DNA from: Rhynchopus sp. YZ270_cl-10
Taxonomy: Eukaryota
Assembly (NCBI GenBank): GCA_964035575.1
Contig: OZ037840.1
Span: 1,426,001 to 1,490,000 of the forward strand
DNA length: 64,000 nucleotides
Reading direction: 5' to 3'
In this document: piece by piece, positions 1 to 26,845 of the stretch
Position numbering within the stretch: position 1 is the first letter of the stretch
Layout: every line of letters starts with the position of its first letter
The notes under the pieces: generated by a model
What the model saw: the letters and a program-made list of their open reading frames with translations, nothing else
What the model was told of the DNA's origin: nothing
The model's database searches: none
Position numbers and translations under genes: made by a program

Positions 1-1228
1 ATCAACACTGAACACTGCTGGGGATGTGAGCCACATGAAGTACGGGCCAAGTGAGTTGGTGTACTGGACCCTGCAGTGCAAGGAACACGAAGACGTGCGC
101 ATCACCTGGACGTCTTTCAACATTGGCAACGACTCTCTGTGGATGAGGGCCCGGCCCACCTTCTTCAACGCGACAGGTTTGGACACTGTTGAGGACTTCA
201 CCTTCACTTCGACAGGATCCACCTACGTGTTCTTCAAAAGTGAGGCTGGCAGTGATGGTGGTGACTTTGCCTTCCGTTACGAGTGTCTGTCGAACGACAT
301 TGTACTGCCGAGCAGTGGCATCGTGGACAGGTTGCTTCCCGCAAAGATCGCTGACACCGTCTGGACTGTTTCTTGTCGCGGCATCTTTGTGGTGCAGTAC
401 TTGAACGACTTTGGTGGCGACTTCATCATCAGCATCGACGGGAATGAGAACTTACGTGTCAGTGGTGAGGACAGCAGAGTTACCAAACTGTACTTTCCAA
501 CACACGCAACTGCGTCGATGACTGCGAGTGTGAAGACTGGGAACAAGAAGGTGCTGTTCTCGTGGGCCTGTGACGCTATGCCTGCTGCTCTTCCATCAAC
601 ACTGAACACTGCTGGGGATGTGAGCCACATGAAGTACGGGCCGAATGAGCTGGTGTACTGGGTTCTGCAGTGCAAGGAACACGAAGAAGTGAACATCACC
701 TGGACGTCTTTCGACATTGGCAACGACTCTCTGTGGATGGTGCAGAGAGAGAGCGGAGTCTGGACCACCTTCTTCAACGCGTCTGGTTTGGACACTGTTG
801 AGGACTTCACCTTCACTTCGGCAGGATCCACCTTCGTGGTGTTCACCAGTGAGGCTGGCAGTGATGGTGGTGACTTTGCCTTCCGTTACGAGTGTCTGTC
901 CACACCTGCGCCTCCCACAGCAGAACCGCCGGCTACACCGACAGGAGCACCAACAGCACTGCCGACAGCAGATCTTGACACAAAGGGAGCGTTTGCGTCT
1001 ACTGATTCAGACGACGGAGGGCTCTCTGTGGGTGCCATTATCGGTATCAGTGTCGGTGTGGGTCTTGTTGCGATTGCGGCTGTGGTGCTCGTGGTGTGCT
1101 ATGTGGCAAGGAAGCAAACGACCAGAGCACCTAAATCCCCTAATGCATTCAACGAGTACAGCAAGGCGTATCCCTGTGCTCAGGGCAAAGAGCTCCCGGG
1201 GAGTTATGGCGAACAAAGCGTTGTGTAG
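1..1228 (+). CDS. CUB-like-domain type I membrane protein, copy 1 (5' part outside window)
   Basis: Same sequence as 4960-6187. CUB-like motifs (YGPxELVYWxLQC...ITWTSF...DSL...S.GS..VxF.SE.GS.GG.FxFxY), Pro/Thr-rich stalk, TM helix (AIIGISVGVGLVAIAAVVLVVCYV), short tail. Confidence 0.8.
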   Translation, partial: STLNTAGDVSHMKYGPSELVYWTLQCKEHEDVRITWTSFNIGNDSLWMRARPTFFNATGLDTVEDFTFTSTGSTYVFFKSEAGSDGGDFAFRYECLSNDIVLPSSGIVDRLLPAKIADTVWTVSCRGIFVVQYLNDFGGDFIISIDGNENLRVSGEDSRVTKLYFPTHATASMTASVKTGNKKVLFSWACDAMPAALPSTLNTAGDVSHMKYGPNELVYWVLQCKEHEEVNITWTSFDIGNDSLWMVQRESGVWTTFFNASGLDTVEDFTFTSAGSTFVVFTSEAGSDGGDFAFRYECLSTPAPPTAEPPATPTGAPTALPTADLDTKGAFASTDSDDGGLSVGAIIGISVGVGLVAIAAVVLVVCYVARKQTTRAPKSPNAFNEYSKAYPCAQGKELPGSYGEQSVV

Positions 1229-2517
1229 AGGAAAGAACTTTGAAAAGAGAGTTAAAAGTCCCTGAAACCGATGAGTGATAAGAGTTAGAGCCCCGTTCAA
1301 ACCTGCTGCCAAACTTGGCCGTAGGACGTCAGGTCGTATTCGTGGCACCTACCTTGTCTTTGTATTGCTCCTACTAGACTTGCTGTAGTGTTTCTTGTTG
1401 TTCACCCTTCAGCTCTACAGCCCTTTTTTTTTTAATTTTGTACAGTATTCCTGACAGAGATGGAGATAGATTTGGGGTTTTCAAAAAAGACCCGGTCTGA
1501 GCTTTTTAGGGTCAAAATTTTTTTTCCGACCGATTTTCTCCCAAATACCTTTTTTTTTTATTTTTTCCAGACCGGGTTTTTTGCCAAAATCCCATTTTTT
1601 TTTTTTTTTTACTGTTTGTGTTATAAATAGTAAGTATATGAATGTATTTTTTTTTTTTTTTTTTTTTTTGGCCCGGTCTTGCGACCGGGTCAATAGATGC
1701 ACCTCCAACCCTGAATTTCCTGATTCACCCAATAATGGTTTTGTCATCTGTGTCCAAGTTATGCTTCGCGGTACACGAGACTTCTTCGCAGCGTGTTTCA
1801 ACCTTTTTTCGTTGTGATAGCTCTATTTCTTTGTTTTTGTTTTTTTCCCCTTCTTTTCTGGTAGCAGTAGATTTGAACTCGTTTTATGTTGTATTCCTGA
1901 GGAACGTACGCTCCATCTGGGAATGCTGAATTCCCACAATGACGTAAGTTTGTCAAGCGAATACCTTTTTCTCGAGAAACTAAATACCTGTACTTTATCG
2001 TCGGTGTGTTGTCTGGCAAACGGAATATACCACCCATGTATTTTCTGGTCTATTTTTTTTCCGTACACGGTATTACATTTTCTAACTTCCCTTTTTGTGT
2101 TCCACGTGACCAGTGAGGCACATAAGCCTTTGTGAAGTCACGTATTTCTCTTATCGGCATGCTTTGTGATGTACGAATCCCCTTTTTCTTTGGGACTACA
2201 GAGTCACACGTGTCCTCCCCATGCAGTTGAGTCTCCTTGGGATCGAGCGAGCTCAACGACAGTGGTGAACTGGACCCAGCACTTTGTATGCCTTGGCCGC
2301 CATGTTTATTTTAATTTTTTTATAAGACATGTGTGCATTTCTAGTGAAATTTTTCAGTATCCACGAGTCGTTTTTTCCCTCCCGTGCTCCCCATCTCTCA
2401 CACATACATTACATCTTCATCAGGAAAATTGTCAATTTTTCGTTCATTATTGTGAACAGCGTTTGGTGTTTTTTCAAAAAAAAAAAAAAAAAAAAATGTG
2501 TGACTGAGTGTGGGGAT

Positions 2518-3309
2518 CAGGGGTCCTAAGAGTGGTAACTTTTACCACTTCTGAAGTGACCTTTTTTATTTTTTTGAAATCCGAAGGTCACTTCGAAGTG
2601 ACCTTCGAAAAGTGCCCTAAAAAGTGACCTTTTTATTTTTATTTTTTGAAATCCGGTGTCACGAAGTGACCTCGGATGCTTAACATACACCGGGAACACG
2701 TTGGAGGGTCCGGGAATTTTTTTCTTTTTTGCCAAGATCAGGGGTCTGCAGGGCTGCAGGTTGCCACAATTTTAAGCGCATTTTTTTGAAATGTTGCGTA
2801 CCGTGGCTTCGCCAGAAACTTTCGTTTTAGCAAAATACGTAAGTAATTTACGTAAACTGACGATAATTACCAACGACAGTGCCATTTTATGTCAACATTT
2901 TTTAGAAATGTTGCGTACCGTGACTTCGCCAGGAACCTTTGGGTGACATGACCGCCGCTTCTTTTATAGATGTACTGAGGTTACTGATAAGAAGGCCGAC
3001 ACCCACTAAACATCTGCCAAAACATCTGCCTATGGCTGTGTTGTGTTATTCGTGGTAAGAAGCGTAACGGTGGCACCAGACTGCGAGACCGCGAAATTGC
3101 CTCACAAAAAAAAATCGTATCTAGTACTCTGTCCCTATGATACGGCGATAACCAACGTCCGGTGTATGTCCGAGGAATTTGCACCTTTTCGACCTCACTT
3201 TTGTTGTTCCTCTGAGGGGGGAAAGTTTTTTTTTTCCCTCCCCAAAAAACGAGAAGTGACCTTGAAGTTACCATTTTTAATTTTTTTGAGAACAGCGTTA
3301 GGACCCCTG
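2518..3309. mobile_element. Non-autonomous hAT-type element (MITE)
   Basis: TIR CAGGGGTCCTAA / TTAGGACCCCTG. 8-bp TSD GTGGGGAT at 2510-2517 and 3310-3317. Subterminal AAGTGACC repeats. Confidence 0.85.
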
Positions 3310-4612
3310 GTGGGGATGCGTTCAAGAATTAAACTCTTCCCCCGAAACCCCCTTTCATCTCTAGTTTTCTTTGTCCAAACGTCGAGTGGACGCGTAATTT
3401 TTTTTTTTTTTTTTTTTTCATTTTTATCGTTTCAGTGCTATCAATGTATTGATTGCGCAGTATTATGTTGAAATACTAATTTTTAATTTGTCTCCGTCCC
3501 ACCCACTACAGCCCACCCCATTCCTCCGAACATTGTTCGGTTGTCTTGAAAGTCGCCACAAACCGTCTTTTTTCTCCTTTTTTTTTTCTCCCTTTGCTAC
3601 AAAAAAAAAAAAAAAACAAAGACGGGAGGTGTCGCTTTTGAGCGTCCTTTGTGTGCTTTCTATTCTTTGAATGGAAAGTACATGAAATTAGTTTTGTTAC
3701 ATTTAGCAAGATGTGTACAGATACGTTCATGTTTCAAAAACAATATATTTTTGCTTCATGACAGTCTTGGCAGATCTTACGAACTATTTGTCGTCCTTTC
3801 TTTTTTGTGCTTCCTTCTTTTGCTTTCATCCGGATGGCTGGCATCATACGTGGGTCAGTCGGAGGTGCCTGCATCAACAACTACTATTTCCCCCTGCAAA
3901 ACAACACAATCCGGGTGTTCGATAACCCCACGGATCCTCACTGGCTGCATATCAGAGACGTTTTGCCCTATCTCTTTTCCACCCATACTTCCCCTTGTCA
4001 GAATGGCCCACTAGGTAGCGAAGAGACCTCGGTCCCTTCCCCTGCCTGTTCCATGGCCTGGTTTTGCTGCTAAAGGAAGAACAATAAAAGCCACCCCTTT
4101 CCCCCCCACTGTTTTTTTAGGTCACCTTTTGGTGCTGCCTTCAACTCTTTAATAACTCCCTCCCCCTTTGCTAATCGAGCACAACTCGGGTTTTGTACGA
4201 ACCTTCCTGGGCGATTGTTTCATAACCATGGAGTTACATGAATAGAAGAAAGTTTGTACTGTCTGATGATGCTGTCTGAACCTCTTCTGTGTCACTAGCA
4301 CAGCGCACAGTAGGTCGAGTATTTGTGGCCATTGCTCAAAGGTGTGAAGGTTTGATGCTCCCATGGAAACCCCCTACCCTCTACTGCACAGTTGCACAGT
4401 AATGCGAGAGTACAACTGACTCGGAACAGCTTTGGAGTGGGCTTGCCTCCCGAGGTGTATGCACCTTCTGTGCTGCAATATAGGAACTATGTTCTGCTCC
4501 TCGTGTTCCCAGTGAGAACTGAATCACGCCGAGCTTGTTGACTGTCTGTGTGCTTGCACCCCACACTCACTCCAGATAAGCCATACACCCTTTGCAACAC
4601 ACTCTCCACACC

Positions 4613-6187
4613 ATGTATTCAGTTCTTGTGGCAGCCATGGCGCTGCACGCTGGTGTGCACAACCTCGACAATAGCAGTGGCATCGTGGACTGGCTTCTTC
4701 CCGGGCAAATTGCCGACACGGTCTGGACTGTTTCCTGTGACGGCACGTTTGTGGTGCAGTACTTGAACGACTTTGGTGGCGAGTTCATCATCAGCATCGA
4801 CGGGAAAGAGGAGTCACGTGTCAGTGGTGAGCACACGACACTGACGAAAACAAGCTTTTCAGCAAACACAACTGTGTCGATGACTGCGAGTGTGAAGTCG
4901 CATGGGAACAAGAAGGTTCTGTTCTCGTGGGCCTGTGACGCTATGCCTGCTGCTCTTCCATCAACACTGAACACTGCTGGGGATGTGAGCCACATGAAGT
5001 ACGGGCCAAGTGAGTTGGTGTACTGGACCCTGCAGTGCAAGGAACACGAAGACGTGCGCATCACCTGGACGTCTTTCAACATTGGCAACGACTCTCTGTG
5101 GATGAGGGCCCGGCCCACCTTCTTCAACGCGACAGGTTTGGACACTGTTGAGGACTTCACCTTCACTTCGACAGGATCCACCTACGTGTTCTTCAAAAGT
5201 GAGGCTGGCAGTGATGGTGGTGACTTTGCCTTCCGTTACGAGTGTCTGTCGAACGACATTGTACTGCCGAGCAGTGGCATCGTGGACAGGTTGCTTCCCG
5301 CAAAGATCGCTGACACCGTCTGGACTGTTTCTTGTCGCGGCATCTTTGTGGTGCAGTACTTGAACGACTTTGGTGGCGACTTCATCATCAGCATCGACGG
5401 GAATGAGAACTTACGTGTCAGTGGTGAGGACAGCAGAGTTACCAAACTGTACTTTCCAACACACGCAACTGCGTCGATGACTGCGAGTGTGAAGACTGGG
5501 AACAAGAAGGTGCTGTTCTCGTGGGCCTGTGACGCTATGCCTGCTGCTCTTCCATCAACACTGAACACTGCTGGGGATGTGAGCCACATGAAGTACGGGC
5601 CGAATGAGCTGGTGTACTGGGTTCTGCAGTGCAAGGAACACGAAGAAGTGAACATCACCTGGACGTCTTTCGACATTGGCAACGACTCTCTGTGGATGGT
5701 GCAGAGAGAGAGCGGAGTCTGGACCACCTTCTTCAACGCGTCTGGTTTGGACACTGTTGAGGACTTCACCTTCACTTCGGCAGGATCCACCTTCGTGGTG
5801 TTCACCAGTGAGGCTGGCAGTGATGGTGGTGACTTTGCCTTCCGTTACGAGTGTCTGTCCACACCTGCGCCTCCCACAGCAGAACCGCCGGCTACACCGA
5901 CAGGAGCACCAACAGCACTGCCGACAGCAGATCTTGACACAAAGGGAGCGTTTGCGTCTACTGATTCAGACGACGGAGGGCTCTCTGTGGGTGCCATTAT
6001 CGGTATCAGTGTCGGTGTGGGTCTTGTTGCGATTGCGGCTGTGGTGCTCGTGGTGTGCTATGTGGCAAGGAAGCAAACGACCAGAGCACCTAAATCCCCT
6101 AATGCATTCAACGAGTACAGCAAGGCGTATCCCTGTGCTCAGGGCAAAGAGCTCCCGGGGAGTTATGGCGAACAAAGCGTTGTGTAG
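4613..6187 (+). CDS. CUB-like-domain type I membrane protein, copy 2 (complete, ~524 aa)
   Basis: ATG at 4613 gives a hydrophobic signal-like start (MYSVLVAAMALHAG). Internal duplication of a two-domain unit (A-B-A'-B'), then stalk, TM helix and cytoplasmic tail. No introns needed. Confidence 0.85.
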   Translation: MYSVLVAAMALHAGVHNLDNSSGIVDWLLPGQIADTVWTVSCDGTFVVQYLNDFGGEFIISIDGKEESRVSGEHTTLTKTSFSANTTVSMTASVKSHGNKKVLFSWACDAMPAALPSTLNTAGDVSHMKYGPSELVYWTLQCKEHEDVRITWTSFNIGNDSLWMRARPTFFNATGLDTVEDFTFTSTGSTYVFFKSEAGSDGGDFAFRYECLSNDIVLPSSGIVDRLLPAKIADTVWTVSCRGIFVVQYLNDFGGDFIISIDGNENLRVSGEDSRVTKLYFPTHATASMTASVKTGNKKVLFSWACDAMPAALPSTLNTAGDVSHMKYGPNELVYWVLQCKEHEEVNITWTSFDIGNDSLWMVQRESGVWTTFFNASGLDTVEDFTFTSAGSTFVVFTSEAGSDGGDFAFRYECLSTPAPPTAEPPATPTGAPTALPTADLDTKGAFASTDSDDGGLSVGAIIGISVGVGLVAIAAVVLVVCYVARKQTTRAPKSPNAFNEYSKAYPCAQGKELPGSYGEQSVV

Positions 6188-7476
6188 AGGAAAGAACTTT
6201 GAAAAGAGAGTTAAAAGTCCCTGAAACCGATGAGTGATAAGAGTTAGAGCCCCGTTCAAACCTGCTGCCAAACTTGGCCGTAGGACGTCAGGTCGTATTC
6301 GTGGCACCTACCTTGTCTTTGTATTGCTCCTACTAGACTTGCTGTAGTGTTTCTTGTTGTTCACCCTTCAGCTCTACAGCCCTTTTTTTTTTAATTTTGT
6401 ACAGTATTCCTGACAGAGATGGAGATAGATTTGGGGTTTTCAAAAAAGACCCGGTCTGAGCTTTTTAGGGTCAAAATTTTTTTTCCGACCGATTTTCTCC
6501 CAAATACCTTTTTTTTTTATTTTTTCCAGACCGGGTTTTTTGCCAAAATCCCATTTTTTTTTTTTTTTTACTGTTTGTGTTATAAATAGTAAGTATATGA
6601 ATGTATTTTTTTTTTTTTTTTTTTTTTTGGCCCGGTCTTGCGACCGGGTCAATAGATGCACCTCCAACCCTGAATTTCCTGATTCACCCAATAATGGTTT
6701 TGTCATCTGTGTCCAAGTTATGCTTCGCGGTACACGAGACTTCTTCGCAGCGTGTTTCAACCTTTTTTCGTTGTGATAGCTCTATTTCTTTGTTTTTGTT
6801 TTTTTCCCCTTCTTTTCTGGTAGCAGTAGATTTGAACTCGTTTTATGTTGTATTCCTGAGGAACGTACGCTCCATCTGGGAATGCTGAATTCCCACAATG
6901 ACGTAAGTTTGTCAAGCGAATACCTTTTTCTCGAGAAACTAAATACCTGTACTTTATCGTCGGTGTGTTGTCTGGCAAACGGAATATACCACCCATGTAT
7001 TTTCTGGTCTATTTTTTTTCCGTACACGGTATTACATTTTCTAACTTCCCTTTTTGTGTTCCACGTGACCAGTGAGGCACATAAGCCTTTGTGAAGTCAC
7101 GTATTTCTCTTATCGGCATGCTTTGTGATGTACGAATCCCCTTTTTCTTTGGGACTACAGAGTCACACGTGTCCTCCCCATGCAGTTGAGTCTCCTTGGG
7201 ATCGAGCGAGCTCAACGACAGTGGTGAACTGGACCCAGCACTTTGTATGCCTTGGCCGCCATGTTTATTTTAATTTTTTTATAAGACATGTGTGCATTTC
7301 TAGTGAAATTTTTCAGTATCCACGAGTCGTTTTTTCCCTCCCGTGCTCCCCATCTCTCACACATACATTACATCTTCATCAGGAAAATTGTCAATTTTTC
7401 GTTCATTATTGTGAACAGCGTTTGGTGTTTTTTCAAAAAAAAAAAAAAAAAAAAATGTGTGACTGAGTGTGGGGAT

Positions 7477-8268
7477 CAGGGGTCCTAAGAGTGGTAACTT
7501 TTACCACTTCTGAAGTGACCTTTTTTATTTTTTTGAAATCCGAAGGTCACTTCGAAGTGACCTTCGAAAAGTGCCCTAAAAAGTGACCTTTTTATTTTTA
7601 TTTTTTGAAATCCGGTGTCACGAAGTGACCTCGGATGCTTAACATACACCGGGAACACGTTGGAGGGTCCGGGAATTTTTTTCTTTTTTGCCAAGATCAG
7701 GGGTCTGCAGGGCTGCAGGTTGCCACAATTTTAAGCGCATTTTTTTGAAATGTTGCGTACCGTGGCTTCGCCAGAAACTTTCGTTTTAGCAAAATACGTA
7801 AGTAATTTACGTAAACTGACGATAATTACCAACGACAGTGCCATTTTATGTCAACATTTTTTAGAAATGTTGCGTACCGTGACTTCGCCAGGAACCTTTG
7901 GGTGACATGACCGCCGCTTCTTTTATAGATGTACTGAGGTTACTGATAAGAAGGCCGACACCCACTAAACATCTGCCAAAACATCTGCCTATGGCTGTGT
8001 TGTGTTATTCGTGGTAAGAAGCGTAACGGTGGCACCAGACTGCGAGACCGCGAAATTGCCTCACAAAAAAAAATCGTATCTAGTACTCTGTCCCTATGAT
8101 ACGGCGATAACCAACGTCCGGTGTATGTCCGAGGAATTTGCACCTTTTCGACCTCACTTTTGTTGTTCCTCTGAGGGGGGAAAGTTTTTTTTTTCCCTCC
8201 CCAAAAAACGAGAAGTGACCTTGAAGTTACCATTTTTAATTTTTTTGAGAACAGCGTTAGGACCCCTG
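7477..8268. mobile_element. Second copy of the hAT-type MITE, inside the tandem unit
   Basis: Same TIRs and GTGGGGAT TSD, offset +4959. Confidence 0.85.
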
Positions 8269-9571
8269 GTGGGGATGCGTTCAAGAATTAAACTCTTCCC
8301 CCGAAACCCCCTTTCATCTCTAGTTTTCTTTGTCCAAACGTCGAGTGGACGCGTAATTTTTTTTTTTTTTTTTTTTTCATTTTTATCGTTTCAGTGCTAT
8401 CAATGTATTGATTGCGCAGTATTATGTTGAAATACTAATTTTTAATTTGTCTCCGTCCCACCCACTACAGCCCACCCCATTCCTCCGAACATTGTTCGGT
8501 TGTCTTGAAAGTCGCCACAAACCGTCTTTTTTCTCCTTTTTTTTTTCTCCCTTTGCTACAAAAAAAAAAAAAAAACAAAGACGGGAGGTGTCGCTTTTGA
8601 GCGTCCTTTGTGTGCTTTCTATTCTTTGAATGGAAAGTACATGAAATTAGTTTTGTTACATTTAGCAAGATGTGTACAGATACGTTCATGTTTCAAAAAC
8701 AATATATTTTTGCTTCATGACAGTCTTGGCAGATCTTACGAACTATTTGTCGTCCTTTCTTTTTTGTGCTTCCTTCTTTTGCTTTCATCCGGATGGCTGG
8801 CATCATACGTGGGTCAGTCGGAGGTGCCTGCATCAACAACTACTATTTCCCCCTGCAAAACAACACAATCCGGGTGTTCGATAACCCCACGGATCCTCAC
8901 TGGCTGCATATCAGAGACGTTTTGCCCTATCTCTTTTCCACCCATACTTCCCCTTGTCAGAATGGCCCACTAGGTAGCGAAGAGACCTCGGTCCCTTCCC
9001 CTGCCTGTTCCATGGCCTGGTTTTGCTGCTAAAGGAAGAACAATAAAAGCCACCCCTTTCCCCCCCACTGTTTTTTTAGGTCACCTTTTGGTGCTGCCTT
9101 CAACTCTTTAATAACTCCCTCCCCCTTTGCTAATCGAGCACAACTCGGGTTTTGTACGAACCTTCCTGGGCGATTGTTTCATAACCATGGAGTTACATGA
9201 ATAGAAGAAAGTTTGTACTGTCTGATGATGCTGTCTGAACCTCTTCTGTGTCACTAGCACAGCGCACAGTAGGTCGAGTATTTGTGGCCATTGCTCAAAG
9301 GTGTGAAGGTTTGATGCTCCCATGGAAACCCCCTACCCTCTACTGCACAGTTGCACAGTAATGCGAGAGTACAACTGACTCGGAACAGCTTTGGAGTGGG
9401 CTTGCCTCCCGAGGTGTATGCACCTTCTGTGCTGCAATATAGGAACTATGTTCTGCTCCTCGTGTTCCCAGTGAGAACTGAATCACGCCGAGCTTGTTGA
9501 CTGTCTGTGTGCTTGCACCCCACACTCACTCCAGATAAGCCATACACCCTTTGCAACACACTCTCCACACC

Positions 9572-9768
9572 ATGTATTCAGTTCTTGTGGCAGCCATGGC
9601 GCTGCACGCTGGTGTGCACAACCTCGACAATAGCAGTGGCATCGTGGACTGGCTTCTTCCCGGGCAAATTGCCGACACGGTCTGGACTGTTTCCTGTGAC
9701 GGCACGTTTGTGGTGCAGTACTTGAACGACTTTGGTGGCGAGTTCATCATCAGCATCGACGGGAAAGA
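9572..9768 (+). pseudogene. Truncated copy 3 of the CUB-like membrane protein gene
   Basis: First ~65 codons identical to copy 2, then unrelated sequence and a stop at 9877. Confidence 0.85.
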
Positions 9769-10263
9769 ATGGTACAGGACGGTGTCACAGCGAACGTCGG
9801 CATTGCAAAGGGTTCTGCACAGTTCGGGCTGTTTGGCGGGGAAGGCACAAAACGGTACGATGTGCTGGGCAGCGTGATCCCATCCGCATCGCTGCTGATG
9901 GTCCTGAACAAGCAGTACAACACTTCCATCCTGACCGCACCCGTGCTGCAGAAAGAGGCTGGCAGCTTCTTCTACTTCAGGATTGTGGACTATGTTTGCT
10001 ACACGAAGATGGATGGAGCTGCCTGCTTTGTGCTCGAGCTTGTATCTCGCAAGGAAACAGGCGGTGAGGAGTGGATGTACGAGCTGGAGGCTGCCAATGG
10101 GAAGGACCCGTGTTCCACACTAAATGATGCATGGAGGCAATACATCAAGGAAGGCAAGCTGACAAGCAGCGCCGGGGTGACTGGTGTTCTCGCCGAGATC
10201 ATGTCCGGCAAACCACCTCAAGGTGAGTATGTCGCTCCTTCTGCGCCCCTGAACCTGATGTGA
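9769..10263 (+). pseudogene. 3' fragment of a class III nucleotide-cyclase-like receptor gene (paralog of 19347-22319)
   Basis: VGIAKGSAQFGLFGGEGTKRYDVLG...LLMVLNKQY...EWMYELE aligns by eye with IGVASGPSLFGLFGGTGTKKYDIIG...LLNKEY...EWMYEME. The N-terminal part is missing. Confidence 0.85.
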
Positions 10264-12863: not shown

Positions 12864-13251
12864 GTACTGTGTACTGTGTACTGTGTACTGTGTACTGTGT
12901 ACTGTGTACTGTGTACTGTGTACTGTGTACTGTGTACTGTGTACTGTGTACTGTGTACTGTGTACTGTGTACTGTGTACTGTGTACTGTGTACTGTGTAC
13001 TGTGTACTGTGTACTGTGTACTGTGTACTGTGTACTGTGTACTGTGTACTGTGTACTGTGTACTGTGTACTGTGTACTGTGTACTGTGTACTGTGTACTG
13101 TGTACTGTGTACTGTGTACTGTGTACTGTGTACTGTGTACTGTGTACTGTGTACTGTGTACTGTGTACTGTGTACTGTGTACTGTGTACTGTGTACTGTG
13201 TACTGTGTACTGTGTACTGTGTACTGTGTACTGTGTACTGTGTACTGTGTA
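12864..13251. repeat. (TGTGTAC)n microsatellite, ~55 units
   Basis: Perfect 7-bp tandem array. Confidence 0.98.
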
Positions 13252-14463
13252 AAAACCATAGGGGACCCTATGGATTTTTGGATTTTGAACTGAAAATTTT
13301 GGAGCATAAATTTGGAGAACAAAATTACTATGTCCGAGTTTGAGGCCCAAAAATTCCATTAAATGGTGCTCCAGGGGGGGCCGATATTGACAGGTCGCTG
13401 ACAGGTCGTTGCCATAGGGGAGGGTCATTTTTTAACGGCCCTTAGCGATTTTTTAGTGGGGCACACACACAGACACACAGTGGCCCATACGGACCCTCAG
13501 GGTACACGAAGTAACTTAGCGGTTCGGCAGGGGACATTAGTATGCCGGTGTGCCGGTGTGGGATTTTGAGAAAAAAAAAAAAAAAAAGAAAAAGGCAGAT
13601 TTTTGAATTTTTTTCTGAATTTTATCTCCTCATACAAGGCTACAACCACATCTGTAGCGGTTTCTTATGTGCATGTGACCCCACCACAAAGACCAATCGG
13701 TCCGTTCAATCAAAAGAAATAGATGTTTGCAACTCTCATAAAAAAGTAGCGTACCGTGCGCCTGCGGCGCAGCTAAAAATGACGAGCGGTAGCCCACAGC
13801 TCTACCCTACACTGTGGCTAGGGGTATGGGGATAGGTTCGCTGGGATAGCATATTTGGGGATAGCATATGCTATCCCCGAGGATAGGTTATGCTATCCCC
13901 CTGGGATAGGTTATTTCAGGATAACCTATCCCCCTGGGATAGCATTTGACTGTACTTTACTAAGGATCTGCGTGCTGGGGACACAAAAATTTAGTATCCC
14001 CACCCAGGTGCCCATTTGTCACCTTCCCACCCCTTAAAAAAATACAAAATAATGGGGGGATTCGGGTGCCCAAATAATCCTATGCACAAAAAATGAAGCG
14101 GGGGGGAAAAGGGATAAATAATTTTATTTCCCCCACCCAACAACAATGATAAAGCGTAACGACAACAAATAAAAGCAAATAGGAATTTGTGGTTTTTGTG
14201 AGGCACTCAACGAAGTGTGCCGGCTCTGTGGAGACACGGAGCCACCAGCACTCCCCAGTCTTTTTTCCGGAAGTACCTGGAAAACTCGCGGTTGCGACCA
14301 GGCAAACGAAAAAATTCAATTACACACCAAATGTGTGCGGGAGAAAATAGAAATGCAAAAAATTCCAGCTTCATCTGTGGGTGCGACGTTCTGCGGGCCT
14401 CCAGACATTAGGTGTTATAATTATTCTTGTTGCCACTCATCACCATCAGAATAACACCACAAA

Positions 14464-15503
14464 ATGTCTGGAAGCCCGCAGAACGTCGCACCCACAGATG
14501 AAGCTGGAATTCCAAAACAAAAAGACCTCTTCGCAGACTTCTTCAAGCTGTACGTGCTTCCTGCACCCAAACACAGCATCCACGTGACGGACCTCAGGGA
14601 ACTGATCCGAAAGGTATTCCCCAAGCACTTCGGCAAACTTTCTGACGTAACGCCAACTGTCACATCCGCGATTAAGTCTGCACACAAGAAGGTCAAGGAT
14701 AACTTGACAAAAAATGAGCACGAAGCACTTATGGCAGATGGGAGCGATGCGTGGCTCTACCGGTCCAAGAACGGTGCCCCCTGTGTCCTCTATGGAATGG
14801 ATATTCGCAAGGAGCCAACCAACCACATGAAGACTACCTCCGCATACATCCACATTAGGAAGTATGCGTTGACATGTCTCCTTGACGACATGGACGTCAC
14901 CTTCGAGAAGATCAAACAGGAAAGGGAAGATGCGGAAGAGGCTGCAAAAGACAACAAGAAGACGACCACCAAGACGAATACCGAGTCGAAGACCAAGGTG
15001 AAGGCCGATACCAAGAGTGCGGTGGCTGCTTTCGTGTACCCGGGCCATGATATGGTTGGGTTCCCTGACCGCGTCGAGATCCGCTTCGACGCCCCGTTGA
15101 ATGAAAGGTACATGCAACTGGTCTCCGAAGAAGGAGACCCGAATGCGCCCTCTTTTGCGGGGCGCACGTTCAACATCGCCTGGAGGAGGTGCGTGGAAGG
15201 GGAGGTAGGGGCCGCCTCGCCCCCTTCCGGGTTGTACCGACGCCAGGTTTCCCTCCCCGAAGGGGACTATGCTCGCGATGCCATCACGGTATGCCACAGA
15301 GAAAGAATAAGAATAACACAATACCAAATATAACCCAGATTGACTCCAACGACGAGAACAGGACCGTGGTGGTCATCCCCCGTGTCATATCCAGGGCCAA
15401 GATCTCCATTGGGGGAAAGAGGAAGAGGGAAGAGGACGGAAGCGGCTTGACGGTAAACCCCTCATCGAACCTCATCGAAGACACCACCAGTGGTGGAATG
15501 TAA
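14464..15503 (+). CDS. Transposon accessory protein (~329 aa, 2 exons: 14464-15288, 15339-15503) with HSP20/alpha-crystallin-like C-terminal domain
   Basis: A 50-nt GTATGC...CCCAG intron (15289-15338) joins two ORFs in frame. DRVEIRFDAP...TFNIAWRR...GLYRRQVSLPEG...DAITIDSNDENRTVVVIPR resembles the ACD pattern. NLS-like KRKR near the C-terminus. Confidence 0.65.
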
Positions 15504-15651
15504 AATTCACGGAGAAGAGAAAAACCTATCAAAAAAGTCTACCGCCATCAACAATATGCACCCCCTCCCCCCCCTTTTTTTTTGCAACCCACCCCACCCA
15601 CCCCACCCGAACAAGAAAAATTAAAACAGCTACAAATCAAACTACTGAACA

Positions 15652-17226
15652 ATGGATCCACAGCTTCTCGAAGCGATCCGCGAAGGCTTGGAAAAGGGCA
15701 GACTCCAGGCCCGTGTGTCTGAACACCAGGCAGCCCTCATGCAGAAAACTATGAATGCTGTGCTAAAAGAAAAAGGGTTCGCACCCCTCTCCCTCGGCCT
15801 TTCTCGCTATGCAGGCACGCACAAGAAGCGCCTTGCTGAAGAGGCCGGCCTCCTCCTGAACTCCCTCCCGAACATCTGCCTCGATCTCTTGGAGACGCTT
15901 CCGGATGGCTGCAGGCCAAGTTCCGTTACGGGGGTTCTCCTCAGGGATGATTACAATCCCCTGAATGCCTTCCGCAATGAAGGCAAGAGAACACGGCTCT
16001 GCGTCGCGCTGTACTTTGTGTGGGAGGGGGAGTTTTATTGCACAGAGCCAGTGACTGTTGCGGACAAGGGCCCTGTGGAGTACAAGAACTGGTACATGAA
16101 CGAGTTTCTAGCTCAGGTTGTTGATCTGAATCAGTTCCCACTGACCATGACTGACACCCATCAGGTGTTCGTCAGACTGGAGCGTGTTGGTGGTGACCAT
16201 CATGATTTGTGGTCGTATTTTTACAGGATGGGGGCGAAGGGACACCGCTCGGCTTTTTGCTCTACAGAGCGGTCATTCTCAGTCACACAGCTGCATACGT
16301 GCAAACGCCTTGACCTTCGTGAGCTCGACCAAGCAGGTTTTTACAACCAGCTGTGGGAACTAATGCTTCCTTATTCCTGCACCACGACCCCCACCCTGCA
16401 CGACACCAAAGGGGTTATCATAATACTATGCAACCTACTCGAGGCAGGGTTTTGCTCTCTCCCAGATGAATTACAAAGATCAAAAAAGGACACTGAACCG
16501 ATCAAGAGCCTGACAGGGAAGCAGGCGCATATTGCCCTGACCAACCTGTGCATGCAGGCAAAAGATGTTCAGCTCCAGATTGCGCTCTGTATGCAGGCAC
16601 TCTCGTACTTTAAGTACCAGAATATATCGTGCCACTTTCATGCAAACGGAAGCTGCAAAAAGGAGTTTCTTTTTTCTCTTGTTCTGTACCACGCACTCAT
16701 CTTTTCTCTTGAGTGGGTGGCTGCAGGGGTGACAATGGGGAAGGGATACACATATTTTCACAGCATGTCCCACTGGTTTGATCCAGAGGACGCTGTGCCT
16801 GTCTGGGCATCAGACGAAATGGGGGAGCAAGGGAACAGCACGAGAAAGCTCTCAGCTGGACGGGTTGGGTCGGGGAAACAGTTTGAGAGGGGACAACACC
16901 GCTTTGAATCGGCGAGGAAAAAAAGTTTCAAAAAAATACCCACTCCTTCGCAAAAAGAAGACGACGTACCGCGCATATTTGCCTACAGTTATTTAAAAAT
17001 TTGCAAGCGTTGTTTCACACGCAACAATACGTGGAGAACGAACTTGGATTATCTGGTGCAGCGAGTGAAGAGATGCGGATTCGACGGTCATGTGACGACT
17101 CAGGAGGGAACTAACGACATTTTGTTCAGTGCTGACTCTAATAACCATCAGTGCTTCAAACTGTGTGTGTGTGGCAAAAGAAAATGGGACATACCTTCAC
17201 GAGCTTCCGAATACATAAGTGAGTGA
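15652..17226 (+). CDS. RAG1/Transib/Chapaev-like DDE transposase (524 aa)
   Basis: Ordered motifs LLRDD (D99), VGGD (D182), SAFC, PTLHD, LTGKQA, TYFHSMSH, WASDEMGEQGN (E392) parallel RAG1-core SCDG, GYD, CTLC, ALHC, MNGNFA, NYFHKTLAH, WASEGNESGN. Lies between TIRs. Confidence 0.8.
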   Translation: MDPQLLEAIREGLEKGRLQARVSEHQAALMQKTMNAVLKEKGFAPLSLGLSRYAGTHKKRLAEEAGLLLNSLPNICLDLLETLPDGCRPSSVTGVLLRDDYNPLNAFRNEGKRTRLCVALYFVWEGEFYCTEPVTVADKGPVEYKNWYMNEFLAQVVDLNQFPLTMTDTHQVFVRLERVGGDHHDLWSYFYRMGAKGHRSAFCSTERSFSVTQLHTCKRLDLRELDQAGFYNQLWELMLPYSCTTTPTLHDTKGVIIILCNLLEAGFCSLPDELQRSKKDTEPIKSLTGKQAHIALTNLCMQAKDVQLQIALCMQALSYFKYQNISCHFHANGSCKKEFLFSLVLYHALIFSLEWVAAGVTMGKGYTYFHSMSHWFDPEDAVPVWASDEMGEQGNSTRKLSAGRVGSGKQFERGQHRFESARKKSFKKIPTPSQKEDDVPRIFAYSYLKICKRCFTRNNTWRTNLDYLVQRVKRCGFDGHVTTQEGTNDILFSADSNNHQCFKLCVCGKRKWDIPSRASEYISE

Positions 17227-19346
17227 GGAGTTCCACAAATCTGCTTTTTTCCCTGTGTTACCTTTTGAACTTTTGTGTGATTTTTATTGTGTGAAATGCT
17301 TGTTTTTTTATCCGCATCCTTTTTTATTTATTTATCCCTTCCCCCCCCCCGCTTCATTTTTTGTGCATAGGATTATTTGGGCACCCGAATCCCCCCATTA
17401 TTTTGTATTTTTTTAAGGGGTGGGAAGGTGACAAATGGGCACCTGGGTGGGGATACTAAATTTTTGTGTCCCCAGCACGCAGATCCTTAGTAAAGTACAG
17501 TCAAATGCTATCCCAGGGGGATAGGTTATCCTGAAATAACCTATCCCAGGGGGATAGCATAACCTATCCCCTGGGGGATGGCATATGCTATCCCCAAATA
17601 TGCTATCCCAGCGAACCTATCCCCATACCCCTAGCCACAGTGTAGGCCATAGTCACAGCTACCTTTACCATAGTTTGGCTATAAAAGCGTGCGATTTTAT
17701 GTCACAATTTTTGAAATGTTGCGTCCCGTGGCTTCGCCAGAAATGTTTTGATGCCATATGGTTAGACAAGGGCGCGGAGGGGAAAGAGTTGTGGAGGTCT
17801 CTGCCAAAAATGCGTGGGGAAAAAAAAATTGCCTCACACCGGCTTTTTTGGCTCACACCGGCTTTTTTTTTCAAAATCTCAAACTACCAATGTCCCCTGC
17901 GGTTCGGGCAAAAAAAAAAAAAAAAAAAAGTATAAATCTGGATTTCGAGGAAAAAAATTTTTGGGGGGGTAGTGGTCACCCCTCCCACCCCTCATATCAG
18001 AAAATATCAGCTCCTAAAGACACTAAAGCACAGCCTCCTCTTGTCAGGTCGAACTCCCTGTTGGCCTTTGGGCTTTCTGTTTTACAGAGGCCCGGGGCAC
18101 AGAGCACCGCGAGAGATAAGAAAGAAAAAAGTAGCGTACCGTGCGCCTGCGGCGCAAGCCTGCAACCCACCCTTCCCATGACATAGTTTGGCTGTAAAAA
18201 TGTTCGATTGTAAGCGCATTTTTTTGAAGTGTTGCGTACTGTGGCTTCGCCAGAAACTTTCGTTTAACAAAATGTGGAAGTAAAATTTACGGAACTGACG
18301 ATAAATATCAACGAAAGTGCCATTTTATGTCAACATTTTTTAGAAATGTTGCGTACCGTGGCTTCGCCAGGAGCCTTTGGGTGCCAGTGACCCTTTTAAG
18401 GGTGAAAAAGCTCGGGAGCCCAAAACCGCTAAAAAATATTTTTGGAGGACTCACCCGACCTCCCTGGTTGTAGTGGGGGATAAAATAAAATATCTCTTTT
18501 TTCCCATCTGAATATTCCCATCCCCAAGGAAAATCCACACCAAAAACACACGCGGTGTGGGAAATGGGGGATAACTGTAGTGGGTGATAAAATAAAACAA
18601 AATAGGGGAGAAAAAACGGGGGATAATTGTTTTATCCCCCACCCCCCTTTAGGTCAAGATAGGATAAATTAACCATTTTGTAAACACGAAAGTGTTGTGT
18701 TTGCGGTCAACTATAAAAGACACAGATTAGTGAGGACACAGCAGTTGGTGTAATGCTGTTATGCTGTTATGCGATTGTTCAGTTTTTGTCTCGTTTTACA
18801 ACCTGACAACGGACGTGGCGAAACAAAAATAATAGGTTCTTACAGAGTAGATCAAGACGAAACTGTACGTGGGTAGCGTACTAACTAAGCAAAAGATGAC
18901 AGGGGGTTTTTATTATTTCAAACTTGGTCGTATCACGCGAGGATGAGCTCCATTATGTCAACGCTGTTTGGCCTGTCTGGGCAAATAGGTATTAGTAACG
19001 TGGGGGTCATGATAATTACCCCCATTTCGGAAGCACATTTTTCTTCTAGGGTTTCCCTTGAGAAACCCGCTGTTCGCTGCCTTTTTCTTCTTCTCCAAAT
19101 GCCATCATCTCTCTTACCGACAACCCGGTTTATAATCGACAAAAACTCTCTGTGCCCGTTGAACTACACTTAAAACAAGGTAGCAAAAGATAAAATCTAT
19201 CACACTGACCACTTTTACGATACCCCACCCTTGCTGGAGCGACGTTTGCAAACACAAACCTAGGTACGGAGTGTGATGTCACCCAAACCACTCCAACCAC
19301 AGGAGGCTCATATTCCCTCAACCCCCCTCCCCACACACAGCCCTCA

Positions 19347-22319
19347 ATGCACTCATGTGTGCCCGTGCTGCTGCTTGCACTGCTGTGTGGCGCTGACGCT
19401 GCCCTGAAGAAGCCGATCCGCCTGATCGGTGTCTTCGCCACGTCGCCGCCACTCGCACCGCACGACAAAAGCTGGAACCCTCTTGTGCCGTGCGAGCGCA
19501 TTGTGACTGAGGGTGACGACGACTGCTACAAGGGCGGCTTCCCTGGGGTGGCTGCGTGGATGGAGCACTATTCACAGGACGTGCGTGGGACCATCAAAGT
19601 GACATCGCCAGATTTCAAGTCCCGCATGATCTTTGGACATCCCCTTGGCCTGGATCTGAACTACGAGATCTGGGACAGGCTTGACATTGACTTCGTCACA
19701 TTGAGGGCAGAGCACTTGATGACGAAAGCCACAGACGCATCCGTTGTGGAGAACTTTGTTGCAAACATGAAACAGCCAATGATCATGACAGACCTCGCGA
19801 TCCTGGACAACTTTGTCTACCTTCTGGGCCTGCTGACCATGTGGCATGTGAAGGTGATTGACGGTGTGCAGATCGGTGTGATCGTGCTGTGGTCCGAGAC
19901 TTATCTCGGACGACGTGGTCAGTCCATTCCCCACGACAAGCTCATCCCCGTGGTGACGACAAGGCTGCGTGCCCAGGGTGTGGCACAGATCGTGGTGCTC
20001 CGCATTGGCCACGTGGGTGTGGAGGACGAGATGCAGCAACTGACGACGTACGACGTGGACGTGGTTCTAACGGACGTTGTTGCGGGGACAGACTTTGCTT
20101 CGAACGGGACGTCTGTTCTGTATGCAGCAGGCATTCAGGACGACAAGGCAACTGCATACCCAATCGTGACGTTGGACTTGACCGAAGAAGTGGACGGGTC
20201 GAAGTGGCACTACAGTGTAACAGAGGTGAGTGCACGTGACCTGCCTGTTCCTGTGACGGACGCACGCTTTGCAGCAAACCTTGCCTGGATGCAAGAGCAG
20301 ATTGTGCTGAGCCAGACAAACGACTACGTGGTTGCAACGTCGACAGCAGCGATGCCGTCCATCAATGAGGAAGGGTTCTACGACTGCCGTGGGGGTGACT
20401 GTGAGTTGGGCAAGATGACTGCAGATGCGATGCGTGAGTGGGCAGGGACGGACCTGGCAATGATAAATGGTGGTTCGCTGCGTGGTGTTGGGTGGGAGAA
20501 GGGTCCGATCAAGCGCAGCGCTTTGTGGGGCACGTACCCCTTTGCAAACCTGCTGTGCAAAGTGAACATGTCAGGCACTGTGCTGCTGGATTTCATGAAC
20601 CACGGAGTGAGTGCACTGCTTCCGGACGGAACACGAGACAAGACGAGCCGCCTTGGTCTGTACCCACAGATGAGTGGGATGCGGTTCACCATCAACCCCA
20701 GCCTCCCCGAACGTCGTGTTGTTTCGATCGATGTGCTCACACCCACAGGGGTGTACGAGCCACTGCAGAAGCGTAAGTTGTACTCCATTGTCCTTCCAGA
20801 GTTCATTGCAGGTGGTGGTGACGGGTACGGGATGCTTCCCACGAACCAGCACGACGGGTCGGAAGGCTGTGGTATCGACACTGCACTGGAGGTGACAGAG
20901 ACGTACCTGAAGGCTGCATCGATTTACACTCCGTCCTTGGGTGACAGAATGAGTCTCAACATGGCTGGGAGTGCACTGATGATGATGAACCAGACGAAGT
21001 ACAACTGCACAGAGAACCAGAAGTACGATCCACACTGGCAGCACTGCGAGGACTGCCCTGAAGGCTTCTGGCACCCAGACATGGACAGCCCTGCGTGTGT
21101 GGAGAAGCTTCCGAGTGAGGTGGACATCGGGATGATTCTTGGCATCGTGTTTGGTGGTCTTGTCCTGCTTGTGATCCCGATTGCGTGGAAGATGACAGAG
21201 AAGCAGCGCCGCATCAACGCGCTCTTCAACAACAACAAGATTGCAGAGGAGTGTGCCATTGCGGTTATGGACCTCCGTCTTGGCGACCTTGACTACCTCC
21301 ACGAGCTGGAGAAGCCGAACACGATTCAGTCTGCGTTTATTGCCATCACGAAGCAGATGAAGGTGTACATGGAGTTTATGCCCAAGAACCTGATTGCAAA
21401 CTACAAGGACACGAGCGACGATGGGAGCGAGACACGGTCCACATGCAAGCCCCGCTCTGATGCACTGTCGTCTCGCCGCTCGAGTGCCGCGACGTCACGC
21501 TCTGGTCTGCGGCGAATGGCTGATTCTTCGTCGAGGTTTTCGTCCGAGATGCAGATGCAGCAGAGACGTGTGCGTGCCACGTTTGCGAAGCGCAGACGCC
21601 TGTCTGTGCTGTACCTGAACAGCAAGGGCCACACCGCACTCTGCACAGCAGACAACGCCGTCAGCATCCACTCCTACTTCATCGAAACCTTCAACAGAGT
21701 TGTGGAGACCAACAAAGGCCTTGCGGAGCCTATGTGCGGCGACCGTGTCGTGGCGGTGTGGAACACTGTCGTGGACCGTTCGAACCACGCAATCTTTGCG
21801 TGCAAGGCCGCACGCGACTTGGCGACGTTTTCCGAGAGGGGCATTGTGCCGCAGATCGGTGTGGCCTCGGGGCCGTCGCTGTTTGGGCTGTTTGGGGGTA
21901 CCGGGACGAAGAAGTACGACATCATTGGGAAGACGTTGAACGCGGCTTCTATTCTGATGCTGCTGAACAAGGAGTACGACACGAAGGTGCTTGTCACCAA
22001 GCAGGTGGCACTGGAGGCCTCTGTCACGTTCTACCTCAAGATTGTCGACCACGTCAACTACACGAAACTCCCCGATACTTTCCTCTACTCACTTGAATCA
22101 GAGCGCAGTTCAGGACAACACGACGAGTGGATGTACGAGATGGAGCAGTCCGAAGGCTGTGACCCCTTCGCGGCCAACAACCACAACTGGATTGAATTTA
22201 TCAAAAAGGGTGTCGTTACTGGTGATGCATCTGGTCTGAGCGGCATCCTGCTTGAGCTCAGAAAACGGAACTACTCTGGTGAATACCACGCACGCTGTGC
22301 GTCGTTGGACCTCGTGTAA
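19347..22319 (+). CDS. Receptor-type protein: 5'-nucleotidase-like ectodomain, Cys-rich linker, TM helix, class III adenylate/guanylate cyclase-like domain (990 aa)
   Basis: Signal peptide. 5'-NT C-terminal motifs (LGKMTADAMR, INGGSLRG, YPFAN, PQMSGMRF, FIAGGGDGY). CEDCPEG linker. TM (ILGIVFGGLVLLVIPIAW). Cyclase motifs GDRVVAVWN and IGVASG..FGLFG...YDIIG..LNAAS. Confidence 0.9.
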   Translation: MHSCVPVLLLALLCGADAALKKPIRLIGVFATSPPLAPHDKSWNPLVPCERIVTEGDDDCYKGGFPGVAAWMEHYSQDVRGTIKVTSPDFKSRMIFGHPLGLDLNYEIWDRLDIDFVTLRAEHLMTKATDASVVENFVANMKQPMIMTDLAILDNFVYLLGLLTMWHVKVIDGVQIGVIVLWSETYLGRRGQSIPHDKLIPVVTTRLRAQGVAQIVVLRIGHVGVEDEMQQLTTYDVDVVLTDVVAGTDFASNGTSVLYAAGIQDDKATAYPIVTLDLTEEVDGSKWHYSVTEVSARDLPVPVTDARFAANLAWMQEQIVLSQTNDYVVATSTAAMPSINEEGFYDCRGGDCELGKMTADAMREWAGTDLAMINGGSLRGVGWEKGPIKRSALWGTYPFANLLCKVNMSGTVLLDFMNHGVSALLPDGTRDKTSRLGLYPQMSGMRFTINPSLPERRVVSIDVLTPTGVYEPLQKRKLYSIVLPEFIAGGGDGYGMLPTNQHDGSEGCGIDTALEVTETYLKAASIYTPSLGDRMSLNMAGSALMMMNQTKYNCTENQKYDPHWQHCEDCPEGFWHPDMDSPACVEKLPSEVDIGMILGIVFGGLVLLVIPIAWKMTEKQRRINALFNNNKIAEECAIAVMDLRLGDLDYLHELEKPNTIQSAFIAITKQMKVYMEFMPKNLIANYKDTSDDGSETRSTCKPRSDALSSRRSSAATSRSGLRRMADSSSRFSSEMQMQQRRVRATFAKRRRLSVLYLNSKGHTALCTADNAVSIHSYFIETFNRVVETNKGLAEPMCGDRVVAVWNTVVDRSNHAIFACKAARDLATFSERGIVPQIGVASGPSLFGLFGGTGTKKYDIIGKTLNAASILMLLNKEYDTKVLVTKQVALEASVTFYLKIVDHVNYTKLPDTFLYSLESERSSGQHDEWMYEMEQSEGCDPFAANNHNWIEFIKKGVVTGDASGLSGILLELRKRNYSGEYHARCASLDLV

Positions 22320-24711: not shown

Positions 24712-26845
24712 TGTACTGTGTACTGTGTACTGTGTACTGTGTACTGTGTACTGTGTACTGTGTACTGTGTACTGTGTACTGTGTACTGTGTACTGTGTAC
24801 TGTGTACTGTGTACTGTGTACTGTGTACTGTGTACTGTGTACTGTGTACTGTGTACTGTGTACTGTGTACTGTGTACTGTGTACTGTGTACTGTGTACTG
24901 TGTACTGTGTACTGTGTACTGTGTACTGTGTACTGTGTACTGTGTACTGTGTACTGTGTACTGTGTACTGTGTACTGTGTACTGTGTACTGTGTACTGTG
25001 TACTGTGTACTGTGTACTGTGTACTGTGTACTGTGTACTGTGTACTGTGTACTGTGTACTGTGTACTGTGTACTGTGTACTGTGTACTGTGTACTGTGTA
25101 CTGTGTACTGTGTACTGTGTACTGTGTACTGTGTACTGTGTACTGTGTACTGTGTACTGTGTACTGTGTACTGTGTACTGTGTACTGTGTACTGTGTACT
25201 GTGTACTGTGTACTGTGTACTGTGTACTGTGTACTGTGTACTGTGTACTGTGTACTGTGTACTGTGTACTGTGTACTGTGTACTGTGTACTGTGTACTGT
25301 GTACTGTGTACTGTGTACTGTGTACTGTGTACTGTGTACTGTGTACTGTGTACTGTGTACTGTGTACTGTGTACTGTGTACTGTGTACTGTGTACTGTGT
25401 ACTGTGTACTGTGTACTGTGTACTGTGTACTGTGTACTGTGTACTGTGTACTGTGTACTGTGTACTGTGTACTGTGTACTGTGTACTGTGTACTGTGTAC
25501 TGTGTACTGTGTACTGTGTACTGTGTACTGTGTACTGTGTACTGTGTACTGTGTACTGTGTACTGTGTACTGTGTACTGTGTACTGTGTACTGTGTACTG
25601 TGTACTGTGTACTGTGTACTGTGTACTGTGTACTGTGTACTGTGTACTGTGTACTGTGTACTGTGTACTGTGTACTGTGTACTGTGTACTGTGTACTGTG
25701 TACTGTGTACTGTGTACTGTGTACTGTGTACTGTGTACTGTGTACTGTGTACTGTGTACTGTGTACTGTGTACTGTGTACTGTGTACTGTGTACTGTGTA
25801 CTGTGTACTGTGTACTGTGTACTGTGTACTGTGTACTGTGTACTGTGTACTGTGTACTGTGTACTGTGTACTGTGTACTGTGTACTGTGTACTGTGTACT
25901 GTGTACTGTGTACTGTGTACTGTGTACTGTGTACTGTGTACTGTGTACTGTGTACTGTGTACTGTGTACTGTGTACTGTGTACTGTGTACTGTGTACTGT
26001 GTACTGTGTACTGTGTACTGTGTACTGTGTACTGTGTACTGTGTACTGTGTACTGTGTACTGTGTACTGTGTACTGTGTACTGTGTACTGTGTACTGTGT
26101 ACTGTGTACTGTGTACTGTGTACTGTGTACTGTGTACTGTGTACTGTGTACTGTGTACTGTGTACTGTGTACTGTGTACTGTGTACTGTGTACTGTGTAC
26201 TGTGTACTGTGTACTGTGTACTGTGTACTGTGTACTGTGTACTGTGTACTGTGTACTGTGTACTGTGTACTGTGTACTGTGTACTGTGTACTGTGTACTG
26301 TGTACTGTGTACTGTGTACTGTGTACTGTGTACTGTGTACTGTGTACTGTGTACTGTGTACTGTGTACTGTGTACTGTGTACTGTGTACTGTGTACTGTG
26401 TACTGTGTACTGTGTACTGTGTACTGTGTACTGTGTACTGTGTACTGTGTACTGTGTACTGTGTACTGTGTACTGTGTACTGTGTACTGTGTACTGTGTA
26501 CTGTGTACTGTGTACTGTGTACTGTGTACTGTGTACTGTGTACTGTGTACTGTGTACTGTGTACTGTGTACTGTGTACTGTGTACTGTGTACTGTGTACT
26601 GTGTACTGTGTACTGTGTACTGTGTACTGTGTACTGTGTACTGTGTACTGTGTACTGTGTACTGTGTACTGTGTACTGTGTACTGTGTACTGTGTACTGT
26701 GTACTGTGTACTGTGTACTGTGTACTGTGTACTGTGTACTGTGTACTGTGTACTGTGTACTGTGTACTGTGTACTGTGTACTGTGTACTGTGTACTGTGT
26801 ACTGTGTACTGTGTACTGTGTACTGTGTACTGTGTACTGTGTACT
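24712..26845. repeat. (TGTGTAC)n microsatellite, ~305 units
   Basis: Uninterrupted 2.1-kb 7-mer array, bracketed by CCTATCCGG clusters at 24600-24680 and 27765-27825. Confidence 0.98.

Follow-up and report, generated by a model that had tools for sequence, protein, structure and literature searches.

The CMCT clade of transposons unites CACTA, Mirage, Chapaev, Transib, Plavaka and ESTA elements, which have in common CA..TG ends, the motifs C(2)C, LH and H(3-4)H, and target-site duplications (TSDs) of 2-5 bp (PMC12730594). RAG1 has C(2)C and H(3-4)H as well. In rust fungi, ESTA elements combine TA duplications with CAC ends and match RAG1 by HHpred (PMC12730594). Transib is defined by a terminal inverted repeat (TIR) organized as heptamer, spacer and nonamer, and the distance from the second catalytic Asp to the Glu (D2-E) is 206-214 residues in Transib and 253 in RAG1 (PMC1131882). 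Other papers describe an apparent TA duplication for Oriex, a Transib-lineage element of the Nozomi group (10.64898/2026.08.26.747230), a CACTA layout of two tandem open reading frames (ORFs), with CACTA ends and 3-bp TSDs in plants (PMC4158355), and H(4)H with 3-4 bp TSDs in Chapaev (PMC4079192). RAG-like and Transib-like elements outside animals have already been published (PMC9435367). Here, we describe an element in a 64,000-nucleotide stretch of contig OZ037840.1 (positions 1,426,001 to 1,490,000, as a whole referred to as the window). It encodes an orphan protein (ORF1) and a predicted DDE transposase (ORF2), and is very probably an active transposon of the CMCT type (Table 1).

The two TIRs are 97.8% identical across 315 columns and both start with CACTGTGG; the termini, CACTGTGG...CCACAGTG, are of the CA..TG type found throughout the clade. 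The flanks read CCTA-element-TAGG and, among flank repeats of 1-8 bp, TA alone is direct. Boundaries shifted outward (13806-17646 and 13808-17644) are without a flanking duplication and were rejected. Contigs from public runs were compared with the element for 4 of 16 runs matching it (X1, X2, X4 and X7). In two of these four, X2 and X4, a joint from 13807 to 17643 skips 3,835 nucleotides, corresponding to the 3,833 of the element and 2 more, and leaves the site empty, with one TA in place. The element and one of the two flanking TAs are both absent from this joint; the insertion thus duplicated 2 bp. In run X7 (record 30), a TIR end is followed by TA and then by 28 foreign letters, in one low-depth contig; we read this end as a second insertion beside TA, for which the CCTAGG palindrome is dispensable.

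The element was inserted into a dispersed host repeat, whose depth in the public runs is far above that of the element. A copy of this repeat at 34.9 kb was considered as an empty site and rejected as not clean. A joint of 13809, T and 17646 was likewise rejected as an excision footprint; its depth exceeds that of the empty site, and a host repeat differing by one base explains it best. The element occurs under several organism labels, which is no sign of horizontal transfer, because the four compared runs also contain the host flanking repeats.

Near-identical copies on 10 contigs and a deletion derivative on 11 indicate that the family moved recently; these contig counts possibly include more than one assembly. 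The 524-amino-acid (aa) protein is found exactly on six contigs, and three variants with one or two changes on four more, while full-length ORF1 (289 aa) is present on 11. The non-autonomous derivative, 2,236 bp long, retains the sequence adjoining both TIRs. A 150-aa truncation of ORF1 and 221-224-aa fragments of ORF2, each on 11 contigs, both fit its joint; joining the window sequence in this way gives the 150-aa protein P0015 exactly, and P0013 and P0015 lie on 11 contigs. Other internal deletions (15012 to 15859) produced in-frame fusions in run X4 and in the proteins P0004, P0005 and P0022, with residues 1-183 of ORF1 joined to ORF2 from about residue 70.

ORF2 is open and contains, besides its acidic residues, S200xxC203, L249-H250, H370xxxH374 and a C-terminal Cys module. 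An earlier note on this DNA had pointed to near-identical TIRs of ~310 bp one base off the heptamer of the recombination signal sequence (RSS), a 2-bp TA duplication in CCTAGG flanks, an open 524-aa frame with D99, D182, LH, HxxxH and E392, an SxxC in place of CxxC, the lack of a nonamer and a Cys-rich C-terminal tail. All of these were recovered, with every residue in its place. ORF1, the subterminal GGATAG motifs, the inverted repeat at the ORF1 start and the deletion derivatives go beyond that description.

A single-sequence search of 1.84 billion representative proteins with ORF2 gave 37 matches, three from this element and 34 others, and these 34 carry the same motifs. Clusters were looked up for 20 of the 34, and the four that are named are transcriptome proteins of two diplonemids, three from Rhynchopus euleeides and one from Lacrimia lanifica. 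Pairwise identity is 22-43% among 15 near-full-length members. In an alignment of 35 sequences, where denominators leave out sequences gapped at the position, the predicted catalytic residues are conserved (D99 in 22/22, D138 in 25/25, D182 in 25/26, E392 in 23/23), as are D388 (23/23), C203 (26/26), H250 (25/27), H370 (27/28) and H374 (25/26), and the tail residues C451 (19/21), C505 (20/20) and C507 (20/20). Position 200 is Ser in 20/26 sequences, Cys in 5/26 and Glu in 1/26. Judging from this alignment, SxxC is therefore a family trait and not decay of this copy. In a family tree of 20 sequences, with shorter fragments left out and no outgroup, CxxC falls in two separate branches, a clade of P0044, P0049, P0050 and P0052 (bootstrap 100) and P0030. 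The well-conserved H198, H215 and H347 are candidates for a zinc ligand that would make up for Ser200. The D2-E distance is 210 here, and 196-213 aa in 19 of the 20 aligned sequences that have both residues.

No Pfam transposase family matched at E<=10 in 15 members, no Transposase_21 or Plavaka match was present among 25 of the 29 families listed for the 35 sequences, and a PDB sequence search with ORF2 or the family profile returned no transposase. Word-index searches recovered the element's own copies only, and locus scans of viral, metagenome and prokaryote collections found no relative. Atlas features gave RAG1 (0.85), Transposase_21 (0.84) and Plavaka (0.84), which are leads only, none of them reaching 0.9. 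In many relatives (P0027-P0029, P0044, P0049, P0050, P0052), the Cys module is followed by an acidic linker and by zinc fingers of the C2H2 type, both absent here, and zf-Di19 is matched by 9 of the 35; ORF1 may or may not replace these fingers. Sister families seemingly spread recently as well, with P0073 (608 aa) identical on six contigs and full-length members of the P0049 cluster on four; both clusters include contigs of Mb scale.

The AlphaFold model of the 524-aa protein has a predicted local distance difference test (pLDDT) score of 91 and a predicted template modeling (pTM) score of 0.90. It places D99 at the end of the first strand, D138 after the third, D182 after strand 171-181 and E392 in helix 388-401, a layout as expected for a DDE enzyme. 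Foldseek ranked RAG1 first (E 4e-7, TM-score 0.46), followed by ProtoRAG (5e-5), HzTransib (4e-4) and Hermes (3e-3). VIA-align also placed RAG1 at the top (Z 18.1, root-mean-square deviation (rmsd) 4.2, 393 residues aligned), and a wide search agreed; HzTransib (Z 15.3, rmsd 5.2, 384 aligned) and ProtoRAG (Z 14.3, rmsd 5.0, 391 aligned) came next, above the P element (Z 13.5), ISCth4 (9.8) and Hermes (7.5). Residues 1-425 of ORF2 align with RAG1 from about 455 to 997, and residues from about 445 to 524 are barely covered. Because the match begins at about residue 455 of RAG1, the alignment contains no nonamer-binding domain.

The copies, the empty site, the conservation and the fold support the placement by the earlier note in the RAG/Transib/CMC group, as a divergent non-metazoan member with recent activity; the matches to RAG1, HzTransib and ProtoRAG, and the conservation of D99, D182 and E392 on which that placement was to be judged, were both found. 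By contrast, the emphasis of that note on RSS-heptamer ends and RAG framing as something special does not hold, as the ends and motifs are common to the whole CMCT clade, and a TA duplication joined with CAC ends and RAG1 similarity has been published for ESTA. Although CACTGTGG differs from the heptamer CACAGTG by a single mismatch, a CAC start alone gives a 5% chance of at most one mismatch, and one of 22 fungal ESTA ends is equally close; the heptamer likeness is therefore weak evidence. No nonamer was found in the TIRs at 12- or 23-bp spacing. The end structure is not new. ESTA unites heptamer-like ends, a TA duplication, a non-animal host and RAG1 likeness, and each of these is also known separately.

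Within the CMCT clade, we consider it somewhat more probable than the alternatives combined that the ORF2 family forms a diplonemid lineage of its own. Several points weigh against this assignment. It is built on a lack of detectable similarity, and a diplonemid host is suggested by the named relatives being diplonemid transcripts. TA specificity is known from two sites only, Ser stands in for the first C(2)C Cys in 20 of the 26 members, and the role of ORF1 is a putative one. In addition, a D2-E spacing of 210, within the 206-214 of Transib, and RAG1 as top fold favour a Transib affiliation.

According to this first alternative, the element would be a deep branch of Transib/RAG1 from Discoba, without RAG2, that shifted to a 2-bp TA duplication; we regard this as rather unlikely. 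With RAG1, ProtoRAG and AanRAGL, ORF2 shares the best structural match, from the dimerization to the C-terminal domain (residues 5-425 against RAG1 459-997), as well as DDE, LH and the zinc His pair, and the invariant fourth acid D138 recalls the DEDE tetrad of RAG1 in our own mapping. The motif S-D-E-x-x-E-x-x-N is presumably in register with the last motif of Transib. DG[YF]NP at the first Asp and FExxNG at the Glu we take to be putatively CACTA-like, which counts against a Transib/RAG1 branch. Likeness to Transib extends to the fold of HzTransib, the CAC start and the D2-E spacing; TSD length in Transib is labile, including the TA case of Oriex (10.64898/2026.08.26.747230). However, the fold lists contain no CACTA, Chapaev, Mirage, Plavaka or ESTA entry to compete with RAG1, which is thus the default best match for any clade member; ESTA, moreover, also matches RAG1 by HHpred, and even the P element reaches a high score. 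Identity is only 10-15% to RAG1 and 7-12% to Transib. Unlike Transib, the element has no 5-bp TSD and no heptamer-spacer-nonamer TIR, but H(3)H, long TIRs rich in repeated motifs and a second ORF. In contrast to RAG1 and its relatives, it has symmetric TIRs and a 2-bp instead of a 5-bp TSD, and lacks a nonamer-binding domain, a RING domain and a RAG2-like gene. No linked RAG2-like kelch gene was found, ORF1 showing no sign of a kelch propeller, and the ORF2 tail is CxxC...CxC, not the CCGHC-type Cx2Cx3GHx4C.

It is quite unlikely that the element is a divergent member of ESTA or EnSpm/CACTA and not a separate lineage, even though TA duplications and RAG1-like transposases define ESTA. For ESTA, the first ~300-400 letters of each record were compared, covering the ends and not the coding parts. 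All 22 starts follow CAC-N-R-Y, as do the RSS heptamer and CACTGTGG, and 20 of the 22 have G at position 8; CACTGTGG conforms to both (a 1/16 chance given CAC). The element thus resembles ESTA in CAC..GTG ends fitting CACNRYNG, a TA TSD (at two sites here), a RAG1-like transposase and a non-metazoan host, but differs in host group, in size (3.8 kb against 7-14 kb for the ESTA records examined) and in having mostly SxxC, and no sequence link was found. With EnSpm/CACTA, Mirage and Chapaev it shares CAC ends, a short TSD (2-4 bp in range), LH and H(3-4)H. The presence of two ORFs and of H(3)H is in keeping with EnSpm/CACTA, although plant CACTA elements differ in their CACTA ends and 3-bp TSDs; H(3)H and a 2-bp TSD set it apart from Chapaev. 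Against membership, the 37 matches among 1.84 billion proteins share the motifs of this family and those named are diplonemid only, and the Pfam transposase families, Transposase_21 and Plavaka included, went unmatched in the members searched. It is very improbable that the element arose by misassembly, is a dead relic or has been domesticated as a host gene: no contig piece in the four runs spans all of it and no RNA run was listed, neither of which counts as evidence, whereas pieces with both ORFs at 99-100% come from four runs of four studies, and recent mobility is indicated by the empty site, the multi-copy derivative and ten nearly identical proteins of full length, each on a contig of its own.

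RAG and Transib enzymes pair the ends of their substrate, nick at CAC termini, leave hairpins on the flanks and join the 3' ends to the target. For a diplonemid CMCT lineage, the model of ORF2 predicts a DDE enzyme of the RNase H fold, carrying a helical insertion that would bind zinc. In this enzyme, D99, D182 and E392, probably with D138, would hold two metals, H250 would line the active site, and C203, H370 and H374 would bind zinc. By analogy with RAG/Transib chemistry, ORF2 may pair both ends, nick at the CAC termini and leave hairpins on the flanks, after which the 3' ends would be joined to a TA target, staggered by 2 bp. The 2,236-bp derivative would be moved in trans.

Both TIRs contain repeated subterminal motifs, nine GGATAG[CG][AT]T in the left and eight in the right, and nine GGATAG hexamers in the left TIR compare with at most two in 5,000 shuffles. 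These are likely protein-binding sites. Taking CACTA as an example, ORF1 is likely an accessory DNA-binding protein, which might bind the GGATAG repeats and help bring the ends together. No relative, family or fold was found for ORF1 in word-index, Pfam, Foldseek, structure and Atlas searches (Atlas at 0.9). Its structure model is of low confidence (pLDDT 39.7) and mainly helical, with a best Z of 4.2; residues 19-112 may form a winged helix, which is an impression only.

Inside the subterminal cluster of the left TIR lies a perfect 22-bp palindrome (13857-13878), present with one change in the right TIR. Its core TAGCATATGCTA equals the EBNA1 binding oligonucleotide in PMC2853575, and 16 of 18 bases agree with that site; this resemblance is probably a coincidence. 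Just upstream of ORF1, an inverted copy of its first ~50 coding bases would fold over the start codon. The resulting inverted repeat has an RNA fold of -104 kcal/mol (z -17), an Rfam search gave no match, and its loop is seen in runs X2 and X7. Such a hairpin is a possible candidate for a self-limiting device.

Table 1. Features of the element and its insertion site (window positions).
Feature	Position	Strand	Remarks
Element	13810-17642		3,833 bp; sole copy within the window
Left TA of the TSD	13808-13809		site unoccupied, with one TA, in X2 and X4
Right TA of the TSD	17643-17644
Dispersed host repeat receiving the insertion	13700-13809, continuing 17643-17760		similar copies elsewhere in the window
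Left TIR	13810-14121	+	312 bp; starts CACTGTGG
Right TIR	17328-17642	-	315 bp; eight subterminal motifs
Subterminal cluster	13830-13947		nine GGATAG[CG][AT]T motifs, both orientations; confined to the outermost 138 bp of this TIR
Internal inverted repeat	14361-14511		arms 14361-14422 and 14450-14511 (62 bp); ORF1 start codon in the right arm
ORF1	14464-15333	+	289 aa; orphan
ORF2	15652-17226	+	524-aa DDE transposase; predicted RAG1/Transib-type fold; D99, D138, D182, E392
Segment absent from the 2,236-bp derivative	14863-16459		joint 14862 to 16460 in runs X1, X2 and X4 (3/4)

Elsewhere in the window, an intronless gene on the plus strand (19347-22319) encodes a receptor-like protein of 990 aa with 5'-nucleotidase C-terminal and adenylate/guanylate cyclase domains. 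Two other mobile elements are present, one with a 1,170-aa reverse transcriptase ORF (42460-45972, plus strand) and one with an 878-aa ORF containing a hAT dimerization domain (56884-59520, minus strand), and a 367-aa ORF without Pfam match lies at 52463-53566 (minus strand). The first 10,000 nucleotides (1-10000) hold a tandem duplication of about 5 kb, with matches 4,959 bp apart and CUB-like surface-protein ORFs at 35-1228 and 4613-6187 (weak matches). Perfect arrays of the 7-bp satellite GTACTGT, of 55 to 305 copies, occupy 12864-13251, 24712-26845 and 40424-41512, and there are other arrays of 5-8 bp units.

The literature searched, which included the available part of PMC8101967 and left most subscription papers and Repbase outside, yielded no account of CMCT elements from diplonemids or from Euglenozoa in general. 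The main text of the D. papillatum genome paper, as far as accessible and with its supplements outside, lists only TATE, MULE and Helitron as DNA transposons and contains neither "Transib" nor "CACTA" (PMC10161547). Because Pfam does not recognize the family, its members probably lack annotation in diplonemid genomes. It is unlikely that the ORF2 family is the sister group of Transib and RAG1, preserved and still active in Discoba. If so, the RAG1 lineage would lie near the eukaryotic root, with ORF1 as a partner other than RAG2, a stagger of 2 bp and a zinc site that is rewired or has three ligands, and the element would offer a compact, intronless enzyme for testing the origin of the 5-bp target geometry and RAG2 dependence of RAG. 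As a probable diplonemid member of the CMCT clade, the element would extend this clade to an abundant group of marine protists. An intronless transposase with a predicted RAG1 fold, a 2-bp stagger and Ser in place of a zinc Cys would be a natural comparison for RAG/Transib chemistry, and the element may possibly serve as a mutagenesis tool for diplonemids.

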